Positions 10,468-20,680 of a stretch of DNA of 64,000 nucleotides are shown here, piece after piece. A program made the translations under genes and the position numbers. The stretch comes from Enterobacteria phage P922, in sequence record OR999189.1; one strand, 5' to 3'. Position 1 is the first letter of the stretch, and the number at the start of each line of letters is the position of its first letter. The notes under the pieces are model-generated. The model was not told the DNA's origin, ran no database searches, and was given only the letters and a program-made list of their open reading frames with translations.

Positions 10468-11124
10468 TTATTTAGCCCTTCCTAATATTCTGGCCGCCTG
10501 AGCACATATTGATTCAAGGCGGTCATTACTTATATGATCATTTCTATACCAGTACATGGTTATCGTTCCAGCATAGATATTATCCAAATTAAAATATGGA
10601 CAACTGTACATGTAGTTTATTTCGGGAGTAGGCTTTTTAGTTGGTAAAAAAGCAAATTTTGAGTCGGAATAATAATGACGTCCATTTAAATGAACTGTAT
10701 ATTCATCCATAGTTTTATCAACAGGATATCCTCCAAGTGATTTTTCACTTATTGTTGAAGGTAATTTTCCTTCATATGCTATAATATCAACAAAATAGTT
10801 TAAGTTTTTAGGGCGGAAAGAATACACCGCACTAAAGTCTGCCTCAGATGATATATGAACTATCTGGAGTTGTTCCAGGGCGACAGATTCAAAGCGTGCA
10901 TTTCTTTCCTTTTCAATAATTTCACTGTATGTTTCATACTTTGATTGCTTATAGTACTCAAAGAAACTATCTCCCCTATACCAAACAATCGCCATCATAA
11001 ATAAAAGAATTACGACAGCTACTCGGGAAGCAAGAACCTTCCCGGTAGCGTTATCTTTGAACAAGCGATCTAGAACACCAAACAGAATATCAGAGGGCGA
11101 AAATGATATTCTAGGTGCTGCCAT
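10468..11124 (-). CDS. t: holin / lysis inhibition protein T
   Basis: 218 aa with one N-terminal TM segment and large periplasmic domain; same length as T4 holin T. Confidence 0.9.
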   Translation of the reverse strand: MAAPRISFSPSDILFGVLDRLFKDNATGKVLASRVAVVILLFMMAIVWYRGDSFFEYYKQSKYETYSEIIEKERNARFESVALEQLQIVHISSEADFSAVYSFRPKNLNYFVDIIAYEGKLPSTISEKSLGGYPVDKTMDEYTVHLNGRHYYSDSKFAFLPTKKPTPEINYMYSCPYFNLDNIYAGTITMYWYRNDHISNDRLESICAQAARILGRAK

Positions 11125-11154: not shown

Positions 11155-11937
11155 TTATACTCTTGGACCATATATTGCTCCAACATTTTGCCACGTTGGA
11201 GCAGACCCTATGACAGCATAACCAGCAGCGCCGCCATTATATTCAGATCCTTGACCGCGAATATTGCATCTACCTCCCGCGGAACCTACTTCACCACCGT
11301 TTCCACCATTATAGATACCATTCACGGATCCTGAGCCAGGTGCAGAAATAGTACCAGCAGTTGCGCCTGATTGCATATCAATAGATCCGCCAGGTGCACC
11401 AAACGGACGCCCACCACCACCGCCAAAGGTTAATCTCATTTGTGAAAAAGGAGAATAATATCCGCCGCCACCGCCACCGCCACCGCCAGCAATAGCTCCA
11501 CCATTATTAATTCTTAGTCTCCCACCAATATCGTTTTGAATACAATGACCTCCAGCTGAGCCAGGACTATTGCTACCACCATTACCGCCACGTCCATACA
11601 TCGTTACGCCATGTATATTTAACTGAACATATTCATTTGGTGTATCTCCGTACATGAAGAATAAAGGAACATCTTTAGAATATGATACTAAATCACCTGT
11701 AATATTAAACACTATAGGTGCACTACCTGCCTCAAAACATCTATCTCGGAACCATTGACCATTGAAGTTATGGTCTGCTCCAAGCGTGTGAATAATTTCT
11801 CGTGAGCGACCTGCAAATTGACTCATCCAGCAAGGAACACCCAATCTTAATTGACCAGCCGCTTGACTCATCCAGCGCTGTCCCGTTTCATTTACGGCTG
11901 AACTTCCAATCCAGCCAGGAACTCCAACTACTGCCAT
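11155..11937 (-). CDS. 38: gp38, T2/T6-type long tail fiber tip adhesin with glycine-rich motifs
   Basis: 260 aa; several poly-Gly blocks ([25 protein letters not shown]) separated by variable segments; T4-type gp38 would be about 183 aa without these. Confidence 0.8.
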
Positions 11938-11951
11938 AATTTATACTCCAA

Positions 11952-11967
11952 AGGGGGAAATTTCCCC
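11952..11967 (-). promoter_or_regulatory. perfect 16 bp palindrome GGGGGAAATTTCCCCC between genes 37 and 38
   Basis: lies between gene 37 stop and the gene 38 SD (GGAG). Confidence 0.5.
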
Positions 11968-11974
11968 CTTGCTG

Positions 11975-14923
11975 TTAGAATTTAAAATATTTACTAATTT
12001 TGCGAGCAATTTTAGTAAAGAGAGGCGTTTTCAATTCTTTAATTTCTTCATTCATTTCCTGAATAGCCTTAATTAAAAGAGCATTCACAGCAGAGTTAGA
12101 AATTGTCAGAACATCAGATCCATCAACTTCAACTTTAGATACAGCTTCCGGTAATTCCTTTTCAAGGTCCTGAGCAATAATACCAACTTCACGTTTAATA
12201 ACACTACGGTCTTTAATAGACTTAACTTTATCGTAAATATAAACTTTCAGTCGGCAAACTTTTTCGACCGCTCCATATTCTAATTCTTCTTTATTAATCT
12301 TGAGACGGGAGTCAGAACGAATATACACATCGCTAAAGCTACCATTTCCTGGTGTATAAAAGAATCCATCATGATGGAATTCAAACACAGCTTGTGGGTG
12401 TCCAGCATCAGGAGAAGCCTCCGTGGATCCGACACGAATGATTGCTTGCCCCCACTGTGATGGAATACGACGCATACCAAAGTCAACGGCGGTGCTATAT
12501 CCTTGATTGGTTATAACGCTTCTTGCTTTAAGAATAGGATAATAACTATCTTGACCAACATAACCATGATCAACGAATAATGGAGCTTCTACTCGCCATT
12601 GGTTGCCCCAATCACCCGGTTGTCTAGCAATCCATCCAGAACCGTTAATGTGTACACGGTCGCGGTTAACGTTAACCATTGCGGTATTTTGCGGGTTTAA
12701 CGCAATCTCACCATTGTTTGTGATATGTACTGCCGCCTGAGAAGCATAGCTATAAAATGCTAGCGAATTATCAGCACCACCCTTGCCAATATACCAGTTA
12801 CCAGTCCCGTCTATGTCACCGCGAATATGCAAAGAATTACTAGCAGTTGTTGATAATACAATAGAATCATTAGGTGCATTGATTGTTAACCGACCTGTCA
12901 TCGTATCACCGCTTTTACCTACGCGAGTATTCAAAGCAGCGTCTAAGTTGGTTGCATTGTTGTATTTCTTCCAGATTGAACCAGCAATGTTACCATCAGT
13001 GTTCAAGAATGCTGCGCCAGCATAAACTCGACTTTGTGACATGAATCGGCCAGACGGCAAGAAACGCCATGTAGCTAATTCATTAGCTGTAGTTCCAGTA
13101 GCGGATAAATCACCTTGAGCAATGATACGATATTCTGAACTAGCAATATCCATACCAGAAGCCATAGTAATATTTGTTACAGTGTTTTTCTGTTTTACAA
13201 TAGGAGCAAACTGGTTTTTATTTGAATCGTCAATGGCCTGATATAATGGTGCAATGGTAGTATTCTGATTCGCGTAAGTATTAGAACCAGAACCGCTAGC
13301 AGGGGCTTGAATATATGCTCCTGGAGCAAGTGAAATTTTCTGATTAGCACCAAGATTAACAGCAGCAGTGATATTCAACAATCCCCTAAAGTTTTGTTGA
13401 GCAGTCCAAGTATGTGATCCGTCTTCAAGAACAACACGGCGACAAGTGTTAGTCCTGTTTCCTGGATTTCCAGCTATACGCACAACAAAATAACGGTAGT
13501 TTGTCTGGGATACAGTACCACGCCAAACCTGAACAGTACGTCCTGTGCCAGTATGTTCGCTAGGACCAACAGAAAACATAATTAAGTTTCCGTCAATCGT
13601 ACCCCAATCCATATTAGCTGGCATGTTCTTTATTTTGTTCAAAGGAACGCTAAACATACTACCAGGAACAAAATCAAAGGTTTGCCAATCTAACTCCGCT
13701 AATTGAGCTTTAATACCACCCATACCCAAAGTAATTGGCAGAGAATAAGATGTATATACTTCGTTCCATGCACCCCACGCACCACCAGTATATGCACGCT
13801 CAAAAATACGATCGCGAGTAGTTGCACCCGTTCCTGCGGTAGTGAAACGTTGGAAAATAGCACCGCCAGAAGCACGCTGTTTAACTTCCAGCAAACCAAC
13901 AATAACAGTCGGCAAACCTTCACCTGTAGGACAGTTAATAACGGCATCAGTGCCTAAAATATTATATAACCCGGGAGTTTTAAAATCATTCAGATCTCCA
14001 TCATAGAAAGTCGCTGGTGTGCCATGACCAACCTGCTTCCATTCCTCCCACTTAGGTGCACTAGCATCCCATGCAGCAGCGAGACAACGAGTATAAACCA
14101 TACCCATGCGGGTAGTATAACGCTGAGTTCTCGTGTATAAACCACCTTCAAATATTTCTAAAAATCCTTGTGCGGCTGATCCTTCTTCTGGATAATGGCG
14201 ATCAAATGATGCGATTGCGCTTGAACTGTTTCGCCATAAGCCACAATGTTCTAATTCTCCCAAGCTATCAAGGTCAATCGTTTGTGAAAGTGGACGAGTT
14301 GACGCTTGAACATTACGCCACACACCCCATGGACCATCGACGCCATTCCATTTAGCAGATAAGGAACGAATATAGACGTTACCAGATCTTACAGTATAAC
14401 GCTGAGTGCCAGCAAATTGGCCGGCCACAAACACTTCTAGTACACCTACGGCATTTTCTTCTGGGAATTTATTTGCTGGTTGCGCATTTGTTGAAGTAGA
14501 TTTCGACCAAACACCAAGATATTCTTCAATGGGCCCATACGTATCTAAATTAGCATCAGTAGGTAATTCGCCATTATTTTTTATAAATGTTGTGCTATTG
14601 ACATTTATGTCAGATGGAGTTAAGGTAATGTCCTTTGACCCATCAAAAGATATACCATTAATTTTCCTAGGTGTTTGCAATTTAGTAGCTGTGCTAGAAT
14701 TTCCAATTAAAGTTCCAGTTATATTTTCTGTAACCTCTAAAGACCCATTTATAGTTCCTCCATATTTTAAACCTAATTCTATAACACTACCTGAGTCATC
14801 TTTTGTGAAAATTGTTTTATCTTTTAAGTTTATAGCCAATTCACCTTCGGCTAATACTGAAGCAGCAGGACGTTGACCTGCAGTTTTGCTTCTTTTAAAT
14901 TGTATTTGTTTTAAAGTAGCCAT
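11975..14923 (-). CDS. 37: gp37 long tail fiber distal subunit
   Basis: 982 aa; N-terminus [13 protein letters not shown]... matches T4 gp37; C-terminal region diverges and ends in a chaperone-like domain (...[25 protein letters not shown]). Confidence 0.85.
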
Positions 14924-14931
14924 AAGTCCTC

Positions 14932-15582
14932 TTAATAATAGCCGAAATCTTGAACAGAATCCTTAATTACGATTTGGTCAAATCGTGGAACGTGTGAAGG
15001 TTGAGATGCAGGATTCTGTGAAAAAAGGTTTGGCGCAGTTAAATTTCCTGTCATAGTGTCTCCAGAGCGTAATACCCTAGAGTTTGCATTTGCTGTAACA
15101 GTATTTATTGCTCCATCAACATAATCTTTGCGAGTAACATCAGATGCTGCGGAAGGAGTAGATGTAACAGTTACCGATGGAGCCGTTACAGCCCTGGTAA
15201 ATGTTGTCAAACCTTCTGGCGTAATAGTAATTTGTCCAGTAGTGATTTCACTACCTGCTGGTCTAAAACTAATACCGCCAGAAGAGCCACCAACTACAAG
15301 AGTATTACCAGTGCCGCCACCAGAACGAATTCGGATAGGGGTTTCATTATTACTTAATTGAAGATAACTATTTACCCCGTAATTAATAGTAATTGGACCG
15401 GCGTAAGTACCACCATTAGCTTTAGAAACGAAATCGTTATCAGCTGCCTGCGGTTTATTATATTCTGAATATATTTTAAATGATTTGTAGAGTACATCGT
15501 CACCGGCTGAATTCAATGGAAAATTTCCTTGATGCCAAATGACAGATCCACCCACAGTTGAACCTACTTTTAAATCAGCCAT
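14932..15582 (-). CDS. 36: gp36 long tail fiber hinge connector
   Basis: 216 aa; position between 35 and 37. Confidence 0.8.
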
Positions 15583-15605: not shown

Positions 15606-15613
15606 TATTTATA
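15606..15613 (-). promoter_or_regulatory. late promoter TATAAATA upstream of gene 36
   Basis: reverse complement reads TATAAATA 24 nt upstream of gene 36 start. Confidence 0.55.
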
Positions 15614-15644: not shown

Positions 15645-16760
15645 TTAAACTTCTCTAAATTCCTGTCCAAACACTTTGCCAGTTTTAGAAGAGGCTTGTG
15701 TAGGAAGTACCATTATATCTGGAGGTGAAGCCGATTCACAGACATAATTAACGCGAATACCGTTGACGCCAAATTCGGCAGGTTTTGAAATGCCGCCATT
15801 TCTTGATACTTCAGAAAAACTTAAATTTCTCATGCCGCCTTGACCTGCTTGAGCAGTTCTTTGTGCATATATCGTAAATCCTACGGCGTTTTCTGGAACA
15901 ACTACATAGTCTTCTTTTAATTCCCAAGACCCAGCTTGCCCAGTAAACTCAGCTTGGGTCGAGGAAATATATCCATTTGATGCATCATAAAAACGAATAG
16001 ATATATTTGTAGTTCCAAGATCAAGTAAATCAGCATCAGCATATAGTTGTGCTTTAAGATAAAGAACATCACCAGGAATTAAATTGTAGTCAGAAAGTTT
16101 ACTTATAGCAGCTGAAGTTGGCAATCGCGCAATTTCATTATTAGTTCCTCCAACCGCAGACATAAATTGCTCAACGCTTTCGTATGTTCTTTTAGGAAAT
16201 CCTGTAGCTCCGACGTCTTCTAAACTATCAAATACAACATCTAAAATAGTTTGATAATCATCTGTGCTTTTTCTATTACTTAGTTTAACATGCTCTAATG
16301 CAATAGCTCTTTTAGAAGAAGTATAAAAAGCAGCATATGATACGTCAAATCTTGACAATACTGAATCTGATGGAAAAACTGAAGTTCCTGCTCCCCTTAA
16401 CCAAGATACCACTTCAGGAGGAAAATTAACCTTTCCGCTAGTTAATATAGCAACAAGTCTATTGTTTGACAAAGAATTCATGAAACTGACAAAAGCGGCA
16501 GATGTTGTATTGTTTGAAGCAGAAAAAGCATATGACTTGCTATCAACTAATGCTCCCGTAGAAGGGTCAAAAACTCTTAAATGAAGACCTGCACTAAATG
16601 TTTGATTTCCAACGGGATTATCCTGAAATTTAACATATGGCCCCGCAGTAGAAAGCGGGCAAGAACCCGCTATGCTTATTTTATATCTTACTGAATTGCT
16701 TTCCGATAAAAATGGCGTTTGGACATATCCTTGTCCAAACTCTGCCATAAATTTTTCCAT
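15645..16760 (-). CDS. 35: gp35 long tail fiber hinge
   Basis: 371 aa (T4 gp35 is 372 aa); position. Confidence 0.8.
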   Translation of the reverse strand: MEKFMAEFGQGYVQTPFLSESNSVRYKISIAGSCPLSTAGPYVKFQDNPVGNQTFSAGLHLRVFDPSTGALVDSKSYAFSASNNTTSAAFVSFMNSLSNNRLVAILTSGKVNFPPEVVSWLRGAGTSVFPSDSVLSRFDVSYAAFYTSSKRAIALEHVKLSNRKSTDDYQTILDVVFDSLEDVGATGFPKRTYESVEQFMSAVGGTNNEIARLPTSAAISKLSDYNLIPGDVLYLKAQLYADADLLDLGTTNISIRFYDASNGYISSTQAEFTGQAGSWELKEDYVVVPENAVGFTIYAQRTAQAGQGGMRNLSFSEVSRNGGISKPAEFGVNGIRVNYVCESASPPDIMVLPTQASSKTGKVFGQEFREV

Positions 16761-16768
16761 AATACCTC

Positions 16769-19700
16769 TTATTCAACCCATTCAAATTTAACAGTTTTAT
16801 TCACTGGGTCAGGAATAATGCGAACATTACCAATTCGTAAGAAATCGCGAATAGTAAGATTACCTATTATTCCATTATCAGATGGGATCGCTCCTATATC
16901 TGAAGGTTGAGGAGGGTTACCTCCGTCAAATACCTGAACAAAACTTGACCAAGAGTTTTTGGTTTTCTGCCATGTACGTGTCCAGCGAGTGGTACGTGCT
17001 TCTGGGGTCGTTGGATAAGTAATCCAATCTTGGTAAAGTGAATCAAGTGTGTTACCAAACTGAGTCAATGTACCAGGAGATTTAACTTCTTCACCACGTT
17101 CTAAGTATGGAAGTCCAGTAACTTCATTAGTTTTTTCAACCATTTTAAAATAACCCGGGAACTGGTTATAAGTGGCTGAATCATTAATATCGATTGACCA
17201 GAATCCTACAGTATCAGATGTCGGCGCACGGGTATATAAATCAGATGTTTTAACACCTTGAGAACGAATTCTCGAGTTAACAGTTAAACCACCTGAATTT
17301 ATAGTAGCACCTTTAGCAATGATCAAGCTTTCACCAATTGTGACCTGCCCAGATTGATTATTAATGGACAATGGACGTAATCCATTAAATCCACCAGTTT
17401 GATTGCCTGATGCAGTAAGCATAAAATTCGTTACTGACCCGTCATTACGAATAATGAAACCATAATTTCCATTAATAGCACGGAAAGCATTTGCGCTTCG
17501 AGAAATAATTTCACCAGTTGCAGTGACTGAATTACCAAATGTAGCAACGCCATTCGCATTCAATGTTCCTGAAGCATTAACATTTATCGGTGTTACTGTA
17601 CCGTTGATATTAAATGTTATATTTCCAGCTTTATTACGCTGAGAATAAAAATGACTAGACGTTTCATCACTAACTTCAAATACGGTAGAACGTGTTGTGT
17701 CTGATTCCCCACTAAATTGATTTCCCCACACTCTGACTGTCATCGTTTGAGCCGGGTTTGTTCCAGTTTGAGGTCCTTTCTCAAAAATCAGACGAGTTGC
17801 CGTTCCAGTATTAGAAATAGTTAATGTACTATTTGCTGAAACTGATCCACCGAATGTAGCAGTACTAGATGATACAAGAGGGGCACCCAGATTCGTTTGT
17901 TGGGTTAAGGTTAGTGAACCATTAACTGTTTGTGCAATGTCCCTACGAATGAACTGGAGCGAATCTAGACCATCTAATAAATTACTATCTACGGCTTTTG
18001 CTTTTAATGGCAAATAATTTGCTAATACGCGATTTAATTCATATGGTGATACTGCATAACCATTTTTCTCATATGATTCTAATGGCTGTGTTGAACCAGC
18101 TGTATCATTACCAACGAATGTAATTGAGCCAGACGAAGTTTTAACAAAACCTCTTATCGCAGTAGTCGCTGCCCAAGTAGGTTCACTCTGCACAATCCAT
18201 TTTAAATTTTTTGGAGATACAGCAGTATTTGCTGACGTTCCAGCTACAGTTTCAGACCGAGTTGCAACTTTAATAACGCCTTCCTGTGCTTCAGTAGATT
18301 TAGTACCTAAAAGCTTTTTAGGAGTTATTAGAACATTATCCAATGTTCCTGCAGCAGCTTCAACTTGTGTAGCTACACGAAGTGTACCACGCTGTGTCTC
18401 ATTTGCTTCAAGAATATTAAGGGTATAATGGTCCCAGAGAGTTCCTGATTCAACTAATCCAGATAGAGCAACAACAGAAGTACGATCAGTACTATTAAAT
18501 CTGGTTTTAATTTTTAATGGTGTAGAGATACGAGTATCGTCGACGCCTGCGTCGAATTCAACTTGCGTAGCAATTTCAGCTATACCACTTAAACTTTCAG
18601 TTGCTCTACGGTCATTTAAAGTTTTAGGAGTGACTGCGCGAGTATAATCAGTTCCTGTATTAACTTCGCTTTGCGTAGCAATTTCAATTAAACCAATTCT
18701 TCCATCAGTTGATGTCTTTTTATGTAACGTTTCTGGTGTTACAACCGCATTTGCCCATCCTTCTTGGCTTTGTCCAGCAATTACTTCACTTTCAACTGCT
18801 AAAATTACTGCGCCTTGTTGCGTTGGAGTAGCTTTATACTGATCCAAAGCTTTAGGTGAAACAACTAAATTATTAGTGTTTTTATTATAAACATTTGTAC
18901 CATTTAATTCACGACTAGAAGCTGGAGTAGCTCCTGCAGTAGATACAAAAGTTACAATACCCGATAATGTTTCAGAACCTTGACGAGCTTGAAGCTTTTT
19001 AGGAGTGATGATTGTAGTATCATCGATACCTGTATTAGTTTCCTGCTGCGTAGCAATTTCAGCAACACCTCTGCGAGTTTCTGTAGCAGTTCTTTCATTC
19101 AGCTTTTTAGGAGTGATGATAAGGTCATCTGCAAAAGAGAATGTAGTGTTCTGATTTACTTGAGCAGTAGTTGCTATTCTTGCAATACCTCTGCGAGTTT
19201 CAGTAGCAGTACGATTAGCTAACGTTTCTGGAGTAATTGCTAATTCTTTTTGTGGAGAATTTTCTAAATCAGCATTTGCTTGAGCTTGTGTAGCTAAAGC
19301 AATTACGCCTAATCTTGCTCTAGTAGAATTATTTAAAGAATCGACTCTTTCAACTGTTGGAACGTTTTGCTGTACAACCCAGTATTTTCCATCAGAATCT
19401 TCTATATAAGCAAGTTGCAAAACTGGTACATAATTAGTTTCACCATTAAAAACTAATTCTTGAACTGTTACCCATTCAGCTTCAGGTGGATATTCTGAAC
19501 GTTTTGGGAATTGCAGCAATTGAACTGAAGAAGCAATTTTATCTTCACCAGCAGCTTTGATTTTAACTGTTTGTCCTTTTCTCATGTAATTCATGGAAAT
19601 TTTAACAGTATCACCAATGGAAATATCGGTTGGAAGTTGAAGTTCAATTGTTTGGGCTGTTCCGTTATTCGCACCAAATACCATAACTTCTTCATTTGGA

Positions 19701-20638
19701 CGAATATTAAAATTAGTTGTTATAATGCGTAAACGTGCTTTACTATCCCCGTCAAACAATCTCCATAATTTTTCATTATCGTCAAACATCAAGAAACCGT
19801 CAATCGATGTACGGCCTTCAATAGAATGAGTTCCAACTTCTTGTACTGAAGTTGTTTCATCATATGTCGTGACAATTGTATGATAAAGTGGATTTAATTT
19901 ATCTAAATCAACGAAATTAATAATATCGCCATGATTAGCAAATCTCGGAAGTTTAATATTAATCGGCGCAGCGGAAGTAAATCTACGCACGATAAAATCA
20001 TTAGATTGTGCTTGATATGCAGTCGATGGAGTAACAATCGCAGCTTCTCTGCTATAATCAGCAACATACATTTGCCACAAACGATTATTAAAAATGAATA
20101 TCATCTGTGACTTTGGATGAGTCATTAGAACTGAACGTACTTGTTCACCTCTAAAATTAACAATACTCTGATTTGAAGAATTTATTTTAACCTGATTTAT
20201 ACCAGGTTTTCCACCAATATCTTGAATTATTACGGTTTCTCCATCAAGCGGAGAAGGCGGTAAATTAAACTCAATGTCATTACCAACTGATGTATCTACT
20301 GAAATTGCTTCTCCGGATTTTAATTGATATGGTCCAGATGATACGGTTGTATATACGGCATCAGTACGTAATGCTTTCCAACGAATTCTATTAAAACTTC
20401 CAGCAGGTTTTGGAATATTATCCGTTGCTGCCCAAAAACGATTATTATAAATGATTACAAAATCTTTTAAATATCCACGAGTTGGATCATATTGTTGAAC
20501 TGTGTTTTCTTGAATTAAGTAATCAACGTTAACACCGTCAGTTCCTACGGTACGATCAGCTAAAGCTACGTTGATTATTTTATCGCCACCTGCGTCCAGA
20601 CCGTCTTCTGCTCTGAACTTTCTTTTAATCTCGGCCAT
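16769..20638 (-). CDS. 34: gp34 long tail fiber proximal subunit
   Basis: 1289 aa, identical in length to T4 gp34; internal approx 40 aa repeats (TPKKL...ATE..RGI..IAT). Confidence 0.9.
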   Translation of the reverse strand: MAEIKRKFRAEDGLDAGGDKIINVALADRTVGTDGVNVDYLIQENTVQQYDPTRGYLKDFVIIYNNRFWAATDNIPKPAGSFNRIRWKALRTDAVYTTVSSGPYQLKSGEAISVDTSVGNDIEFNLPPSPLDGETVIIQDIGGKPGINQVKINSSNQSIVNFRGEQVRSVLMTHPKSQMIFIFNNRLWQMYVADYSREAAIVTPSTAYQAQSNDFIVRRFTSAAPINIKLPRFANHGDIINFVDLDKLNPLYHTIVTTYDETTSVQEVGTHSIEGRTSIDGFLMFDDNEKLWRLFDGDSKARLRIITTNFNIRPNEEVMVFGANNGTAQTIELQLPTDISIGDTVKISMNYMRKGQTVKIKAAGEDKIASSVQLLQFPKRSEYPPEAEWVTVQELVFNGETNYVPVLQLAYIEDSDGKYWVVQQNVPTVERVDSLNNSTRARLGVIALATQAQANADLENSPQKELAITPETLANRTATETRRGIARIATTAQVNQNTTFSFADDLIITPKKLNERTATETRRGVAEIATQQETNTGIDDTTIITPKKLQARQGSETLSGIVTFVSTAGATPASSRELNGTNVYNKNTNNLVVSPKALDQYKATPTQQGAVILAVESEVIAGQSQEGWANAVVTPETLHKKTSTDGRIGLIEIATQSEVNTGTDYTRAVTPKTLNDRRATESLSGIAEIATQVEFDAGVDDTRISTPLKIKTRFNSTDRTSVVALSGLVESGTLWDHYTLNILEANETQRGTLRVATQVEAAAGTLDNVLITPKKLLGTKSTEAQEGVIKVATRSETVAGTSANTAVSPKNLKWIVQSEPTWAATTAIRGFVKTSSGSITFVGNDTAGSTQPLESYEKNGYAVSPYELNRVLANYLPLKAKAVDSNLLDGLDSLQFIRRDIAQTVNGSLTLTQQTNLGAPLVSSSTATFGGSVSANSTLTISNTGTATRLIFEKGPQTGTNPAQTMTVRVWGNQFSGESDTTRSTVFEVSDETSSHFYSQRNKAGNITFNINGTVTPINVNASGTLNANGVATFGNSVTATGEIISRSANAFRAINGNYGFIIRNDGSVTNFMLTASGNQTGGFNGLRPLSINNQSGQVTIGESLIIAKGATINSGGLTVNSRIRSQGVKTSDLYTRAPTSDTVGFWSIDINDSATYNQFPGYFKMVEKTNEVTGLPYLERGEEVKSPGTLTQFGNTLDSLYQDWITYPTTPEARTTRWTRTWQKTKNSWSSFVQVFDGGNPPQPSDIGAIPSDNGIIGNLTIRDFLRIGNVRIIPDPVNKTVKFEWVE

Positions 20639-20672: not shown

Positions 20673-20680
20673 TATTTATA
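20673..20680 (-). promoter_or_regulatory. late promoter TATAAATA upstream of gene 34
   Basis: reverse complement TATAAATA approx 35 nt upstream of gene 34 ATG. Confidence 0.55.

Follow-up and report, generated by a model that had tools for sequence, protein, structure and literature searches.

A T6-type distal long-tail-fibre module with a predicted Tsx-class gp38 adhesin in Enterobacteria phage P922

Enterobacteria phage P922 (sequence record OR999189.1) was analysed over a stretch of 64,000 nucleotides, called the window in the following, in which positions 11,155 to 14,923 carry the genes g38 and g37 for the tip and the distal subunit of the long tail fibre. We regard this locus as the module by which the distal long tail fibre of a Tequatrovirus recognises the host, here in T6-type form, and predict that P922 uses Tsx as primary receptor on E. 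coli K-12; comparisons with related phages give this reading a probability of roughly 0.88. Both genes and their recognisable parts are listed below, with protein positions in amino acids (aa).

11155..11937, minus strand: g38, T6-type fibre-tip adhesin, 260 aa, from the list of open reading frames (ORFs); stop codon at 11155-11157
11812..11937, minus strand: gp38 aa 1-42, N-terminal attachment domain with W9, W22 and W37, from Pfam Gp38_N and the gp38 alignment A2
11221..11592, minus strand: gp38 aa 116-239, receptor-specificity region, glycine-rich motifs (GRMs) alternating with hypervariable segments (HVS), from the Gly runs and A2
gp38 aa 122-128: HVS1, SNSPGSA, from A2, approximate
gp38 aa 160-171: HVS2, 12 aa, from A2, approximate
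gp38 aa 181-210: HVS3, 30 aa, from A2, approximate
gp38 aa 223-234: HVS4, 12 aa, from A2, approximate
11158..11220, minus strand: gp38 aa 240-260, conserved C-terminal motif, from the A2 columns
11975..14923, minus strand: g37, distal long-tail-fibre subunit (precursor), 982 aa, from the ORF list and PHROG 1699
14732..14923, minus strand: gp37 aa 1-64, T-even-conserved N-terminus, presumed junction with gp36
12824..13423, minus strand: gp37 aa ~501-700, exchangeable central cassette (mosaic), from the identity per 50-aa bin
12317..12331, minus strand: gp37 aa 865-869, DVYIR, expected to form the final strand of mature gp37 and the docking surface for gp38
11978..12316, minus strand: gp37 aa 870-982, C-terminal intramolecular chaperone (IMC, Peptidase_S74), 113 aa, predicted to be auto-cleaved

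The gp38 protein was matched by Pfam PF21721 Gp38_N at aa 1-42 (1.2e-20, 73.6 bits at a cut-off of 25), by Pfam PF05268 GP38 at aa 47-260 (3e-72, 243.4 bits at a cut-off of 25, profile positions 1-218 of 218) and by PHROG 2056 'tail fiber protein; host specificity' (3e-113); the Pfam values, like that for gp37 below, lie well out of the range of chance. It also aligns to two solved adhesin structures, namely those of PP01 (PDB 9V85; E 5e-79, aa 38-260) and S16 (PDB 6F45_D; E 3e-50, aa 5-257). Gly accounts for 24% of all residues and for 33% in aa 110-260; there are 12 runs of at least two Gly, including nine residues at 151-159 and five at 172-176, and it is this richness in Gly that raises the local G+C to 0.48 at g38. 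Conserved and variable columns were taken from A2, an alignment of 11 gp38 adhesins: invariance is seen for the Gly blocks, for W9, W22 and W37 and for the C-terminal motif, variation for the stretches that separate the Gly blocks. Invariant or near-invariant columns in the C-terminal motif are A241, V242, G244, P247, W249, G253, I255, Y256 and G257. A preliminary description of this DNA, made from the sequence alone, had given gp38 260 aa and poly-Gly blocks split by short variable segments, which agrees with the runs counted here and with the segments between them, which vary among phages; the outer ends of the two genes, 11155 and 14923, are likewise those given there.

Such a layout of GRMs and HVS in gp38 adhesins was described by Trojet et al. 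(2011), whose scheme was adopted; the HVS boundaries of P922 were read from A2 and not from the figure in that publication. The S16 adhesin provides the structural counterpart: three Trp 'prongs' of gp38 dock on the tip of the gp37 trimer (PMC6851490), while in the complex the GRMs form a polyglycine-II sandwich, with distal loops at which the receptor is proposed to bind. The earlier expectation that the variable loops determine which outer membrane protein is recognised is thus supported by the literature. CM8 gp38 carries Leu in place of W37, a docking-prong Trp that is invariant in A2, and CM8 is still a working Tsx phage. Furthermore, the gp38 of FriedrichMiescher is chimeric in A2, with a T2-like N-terminal part of 110 aa and HVS2-HVS4 of nearly T6/P922 type.

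The gp37 protein matches PHROG 1699 'long tail fiber protein distal subunit' with 9e-204. Its aa 1-64 are 75% identical to T4 gp37 aa 1-64, and 73% identity to T2 was found over aa 1-71. Past aa 64, the sole similarity to T4 is a central stretch (aa 496-648, 28% identical to T4 gp37 aa 627-790); nothing in T4 gp37 beyond aa 790 was aligned, and the T4 tip is unmatched. Hence, a T4-like N-terminus followed by a different distal part, as stated in the preliminary description, is also found here. Per 50-aa bin, the whole gp37 is 94-100% identical to WilhelmHis and AV121. In the central cassette at aa ~501-700, the bins reach 94-100% to WilhelmHis, AV121 and Paracelsus versus only 12-54% to T6 and KarlGJung, although the flanks of the cassette are near-identical in all of these phages; this apparent swap is the usual mosaicism of tail fibres. 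In the proximal half of gp37, aa 119-392 (13748-14569, minus strand) contain three tandem repeats of ~90 aa that have motifs in common, e.g. G.W, P.E, G.LE, QR.T and W..W..V; this stretch matches PHROG 4618 'tail collar fiber protein' and no Pfam family.

At the C-terminal end of gp37, Pfam PF13884 Peptidase_S74 was found at aa 870-928 (6.3e-10, 39.6 bits at a cut-off of 22, profile positions 1-57 of 58). The motif S[DN]xRxK, which also occurs in the gp37 proteins of T6, T2 and AV119, starts at aa 870, and DVYIR^SDSRLK aligns with DLNVS^SDRRIKK, the cleavage site of S16 that is known from experiment. At this site the last 113 residues of S16 gp37 are auto-cleaved, thereby exposing the surface on which gp38 docks. 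By homology, a cut at R869^S870 can be predicted for P922, which would free 113 aa as in S16; a chaperone-like C-terminal domain had been proposed before as probably cleaved off, and the Peptidase_S74 match together with the aligned site speaks for it.

The comparison with the classical T-even phages was done for each fibre protein. Identities to T6, T2 and T4, respectively, are 98%, 90% and 91% for gp34, 98%, 95% and 96% for gp35, 98%, 66% and 67% for gp36, 78-79%, 22% and 22% for gp37, 94%, 52-54% and 10% for gp38, and 98%, 97% and 99% for t. As identity drops only in gp36, gp37 and gp38, the segment departing from T4 starts in g36 and ends at the stop codon of g38. The preliminary description had called the module T2/T6-type and not T4-type; the T6 assignment and the exclusion of T4 are retained, whereas its T2 part has to be given up in view of the gp38 and gp37 values. 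T6 (MH550421), the phage with the classical Tsx-binding tip, shares with P922 the gene order and the same four HVS types, and its gp37 is near-identical over the N-terminal 500 aa and the C-terminal ~280 aa, where both phages agree in the IMC and in the DVYIR^SDSRLK site. However, P922 gp37 carries a different cassette at aa ~501-700 and is 12 aa shorter as a protein, and the two gp38 proteins differ at 16 positions, five of them in HVS (S165P, D187N, A194G, A199S and N234D).

More distant comparisons are possible with phages for which structures were solved. S16 (PDB 6F45) has a trimeric gp37 with an auto-cleaved IMC of 113 residues and a monomeric gp38 cap, in which an attachment domain with Trp prongs is joined by a beta-helix and a polyglycine-II sandwich; the same organisation is predicted for P922. 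However, S16 differs in its distant sequences, in its HVS and in host and receptor, and the gp37 proteins can be aligned only over the IMC. The OmpC binder PP01 (gp38, PDB 9V85) belongs to the same family as P922 gp38 and is highly similar in the beta-helix region and the GRMs, but the overall identity amounts to 67% and HVS1-4 all differ.

The receptor class was deduced from the specificity domain of gp38. Over aa 116-239, no residue of P922 deviates from KarlGJung, Paracelsus or fPS-65 (100% identity), and P922 differs in one residue from WilhelmHis (A194G), in three from RB14 and in five from T6. Over the whole gp38, the differences from P922 and the receptors of the compared phages are the following.

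KarlGJung: V15A only (attachment domain); receptor Tsx, as cited second-hand
Paracelsus: V15A and S39I, both outside the specificity domain; receptor Tsx, as cited second-hand
fPS-65: V15A only; isolated on Yersinia pseudotuberculosis
WilhelmHis: 7 differences, in the specificity domain only A194G; receptor Tsx, complemented
RB14: A194G, A199S and N234D; receptor Tsx
CM8: V15A, W37L, A194G and N234D; receptor Tsx/HepI by randomly barcoded transposon sequencing (RB-TnSeq)

KarlGJung, Paracelsus and WilhelmHis were reported as Tsx users (Maffei et al., 2021, through a citing paper), and the tsx dependence of WilhelmHis was complemented. RB14 and other T6-like adhesins recognise Tsx as well, CM8 was scored as Tsx/HepI in the RB-TnSeq approach, and the replacement of CM8 g38 from HVS2 onwards by an OmpA allele (CM8 x EV240) resulted in a receptor switch. 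Since the hypervariable set of P922 corresponds to the T6/Tsx set, Tsx is predicted as its primary receptor on E. coli K-12; the assignment of a receptor class by gp38 alignment had been left for later in the preliminary description. Adhesins with other receptors are clearly different: gp38 identity to P922 is 69% for AV119 (OmpA), 67% for PP01 (OmpC) and 69% for fPS-90 (OmpF), and in A2 the HVS of AV119, PP01, fPS-90 and T2, which stand for OmpA, OmpC, OmpF and FadL adhesins, differ from those of P922.

The three BASEL phages, KarlGJung (Bas37), Paracelsus (Bas36) and WilhelmHis (Bas35), are the nearest points of reference, with 1, 2 and 7 differing residues in gp38. WilhelmHis resembles P922 over the whole module (97.2% identity in DNA; gp37 in the range given above). 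All three carry A15 in gp38, unlike P922 with V15 as in T6 and PST; KarlGJung moreover has a T6-like central cassette in gp37, and gp37 of Paracelsus diverges at aa 51-300.

Among the alternative readings, gp38 could be only an assembly chaperone as in T4, with the receptor being read by the gp37 tip. P922 g38 shares its name and position with T4 g38, and older annotations label T6 gp38 as 'distal long tail fiber assembly catalyst'. The two phages indeed share the locus and its neighbours, including the highly identical t holin, gp35 and gp34 and the N-terminus of gp37. However, T4 gp38 is an unrelated chaperone of 183 aa, and BLASTP detected no similarity between it and P922 gp38 (best E 1.7 over 12 residues), while P922 gp38 matches the adhesin family and the two solved adhesin structures along its length. 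T4 gp37 has eight HxH needle motifs and no IMC, whereas P922 gp37 contains none of the former and one predicted removable IMC at its end, and no T4 gp37 chain was among the matches in a PDB search with gp37. A chaperone-type gp38 and a His-rich needle in gp37 had been named in the preliminary description as the features that would speak for T4; neither was detected in these comparisons. Furthermore, amber mutants in T6 g38 were published to form normal virions that are unable to adsorb. The T4-type reading was therefore rejected on the gp38 and gp37 comparisons, the HxH count and the PDB search; P922 gp38 is most probably an adhesin and not a T4-type chaperone, and we see virtually no chance for a mere chaperone at this place. 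A module of T2 type in the strict sense is a further possibility. The receptor of T2 is listed as FadL (T2 subtype FadL/OmpF), and FadL or OmpF would then be expected for P922. The gp38 proteins of P922 and T2 fall into the same Pfam families, and the gp37 N-terminus and the IMC are common to both phages. Nevertheless, the gp38 identity to T2 is low with differences in all four HVS, the hardly similar gp37 is 359 aa shorter than that of T2, and gp36 likewise sides with T6. Owing to identity and HVS content the strict T2 type was rejected as well and appears extremely improbable.

The more serious question is whether a T6-type module necessarily means Tsx. Several points weigh against our assignment. 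The receptor class is assigned to P922 by sequence identity to its relatives, and Tsx use of KarlGJung and Paracelsus is known from the second-hand citation mentioned above. Very small HVS changes, one to three residues, can alter the specificity: PST differs from T6 only in Q167R, M168I and G208I and gains OmpA and Yersinia, and Q206L switches RB68 from OmpF to OmpW. On the side of gp37, the match to the S16 IMC (6f45_A) is weak by itself (E 0.005). Moreover, the gp38 of fPS-65 is identical to that of KarlGJung, yet fPS-65 was isolated on Y. pseudotuberculosis, a species reported to have no Tsx homologue (Trojet et al.), and fPS-65-resistant mutants map to the heptose genes hldD and hldE of lipopolysaccharide (LPS). 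Hence, the adhesin may not be strictly Tsx-specific on other hosts. In the fPS paper, the 'unique receptor' of fPS-65 was credited to its loops; these are the same loops that are tied to Tsx on E. coli in the case of KarlGJung.

These observations can be put together to a rival reading that keeps the T6 type of the module but not Tsx as the only primary receptor: the adhesin would be bispecific or directed to OmpA, LPS or another protein. In addition to PST, it is favoured by T6-like phages such as RB14, which plate on Yersinia at low frequency, by fPS-65, whose specificity domain equals that of P922 and which infects both Y. pseudotuberculosis and Y. pestis and selects hldD/hldE mutants, and by the closest backbone relatives of P922, which include the Y. 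pseudotuberculosis isolates PYps15T and PYps14T. However, P922 keeps the T6 residues Q166, M167 and G207 at the PST-specific positions, and the phages with an identical specificity domain, KarlGJung and Paracelsus, were reported to depend on Tsx on K-12, as far as the citing paper conveys it. The heptose dependence of fPS-65 could also reflect the secondary receptor of the short tail fibre gp12 instead of gp38, in line with the Tsx/HepI scoring of CM8. In total, we consider this rival rather improbable. OmpA as receptor was additionally suggested by AV121, whose module is 97.9% identical to P922 and which was predicted from a tree to use OmpA (PMC10844046). We did not adopt this class, because AV121 gp38 shows the HVS of Tsx phages with three extra Gly in the long poly-Gly run, unlike AV119, for which OmpA dependence is experimental.

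Thus, Tsx on E. coli K-12 is maintained as the predicted primary receptor, and the Yersinia findings leave two options: either the adhesin has a second target on Yersinia, or the heptose dependence belongs to the short-tail-fibre receptor, a point that was already noted in the literature. According to the first option, one specificity domain would serve two unrelated receptors: Tsx on E. coli and, on Y. pseudotuberculosis/Y. pestis, a surface structure that may be an outer membrane protein or the inner core of LPS. This idea is based on the identical specificity domain of fPS-65 and on the isolation of the closest backbone relatives on Yersinia; it is tentative and, in our view, unlikely. If it is true, a single monomeric protein at the fibre tip would give P922 a host range that naturally extends across genera.

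From the homologues, the following working mode can be proposed for the P922 fibre tip. The 982 aa of gp37 would trimerise with the help of their own C-terminal chaperone (aa 870-982), which would then remove itself by a cut at R869^S870. This would expose a tip that ends in the DVYIR strands, and one gp38 per gp37 trimer would cap it, plugged in via W9, W22 and W37. In the C-terminal half of gp38, the GRMs are expected to fold into a polyglycine-II sandwich, so that the fibre would carry the hypervariable loops at its outermost end. There, the loops would bind the host outer membrane protein, presumably Tsx, in a reversible manner, and this binding would start the triggering of the baseplate.

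The module itself is common and well studied. Its 3.8 kb of DNA are 98.2% identical to Shigella phage S2_01, EC.W15-3 and EC.W15-4, 80% or more of it is present in 75 phage records, and a gp38 of at least 95% identity is encoded in 89 records. The architecture of the fibre tip was described in the 1980s and its structure was solved in 2018; earlier descriptions exist for architecture and mechanism as well as for precisely this specificity domain, and no new biological question is raised by the finding. What is added here is that type and class are narrowed to T6 and Tsx and that the predicted cleavage site is placed at R869^S870. The practical value lies in annotation and host-range prediction, with 'T6-type, Tsx-class gp38 adhesin' as the label. 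Loss of tsx would be the expected first route of host resistance, and g38 from HVS2 onwards would be the piece to swap for retargeting.

The module is surrounded by the following features.

10468-11124: t holin, downstream neighbour of g38, Pfam Phage_holin_T 2e-117
11953..11968, minus strand: intergenic hairpin GGGGGAAATTTCCCCC, situated past the g37 stop and ahead of the Shine-Dalgarno sequence of g38; folding energy of the RNA -18.6 kcal/mol, z -2.9
14932-15582: gene of gp36, upstream neighbour of g37
15645-16760, minus strand: gene of gp35, upstream
16769-20638: gene of gp34, upstream

According to ORFs, Pfam and PHROG, the genes are arranged in the order 34-35-36-37-38-t, which is the canonical T-even late order, with g38 immediately downstream of g37 and upstream of t. 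The first 25 kb of the window are ~97% identical to many Tequatrovirus genomes, e.g. PYps15T, a51 and ES19; therefore, the window belongs to a T4-like phage from a densely sampled group.

The spacer between g37 and g38 comprises 37 nt (11938-11974, minus strand) and consists of the perfect GC-rich hairpin, the Shine-Dalgarno sequence GGAG of g38 at 11946-11949 and then TATAAATT abutting the ATG. At the corresponding position, the fPS-65 record has a terminator annotation on the other strand. A late promoter for g38 was considered and rejected, because the sole TATAAAT-like sequence, TATAAATT (11938-11945), is located between Shine-Dalgarno and ATG, too close for use by g38. The exact T4 late-promoter consensus TATAAATA is present just upstream of g36 (15606-15613, minus strand) and g34 (20673-20680, minus strand); across the window it is not enriched, with 11 found compared to 9.3 expected. 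Finally, aa 58-112 of the hinge protein gp35 significantly match the Pfam family ILEI (PF15711, 'Interleukin-like EMT inducer') with an E value of 8e-8 and 33.1 bits at a cut-off of 27, an unexpected domain name for the hinge protein of a phage tail fibre.

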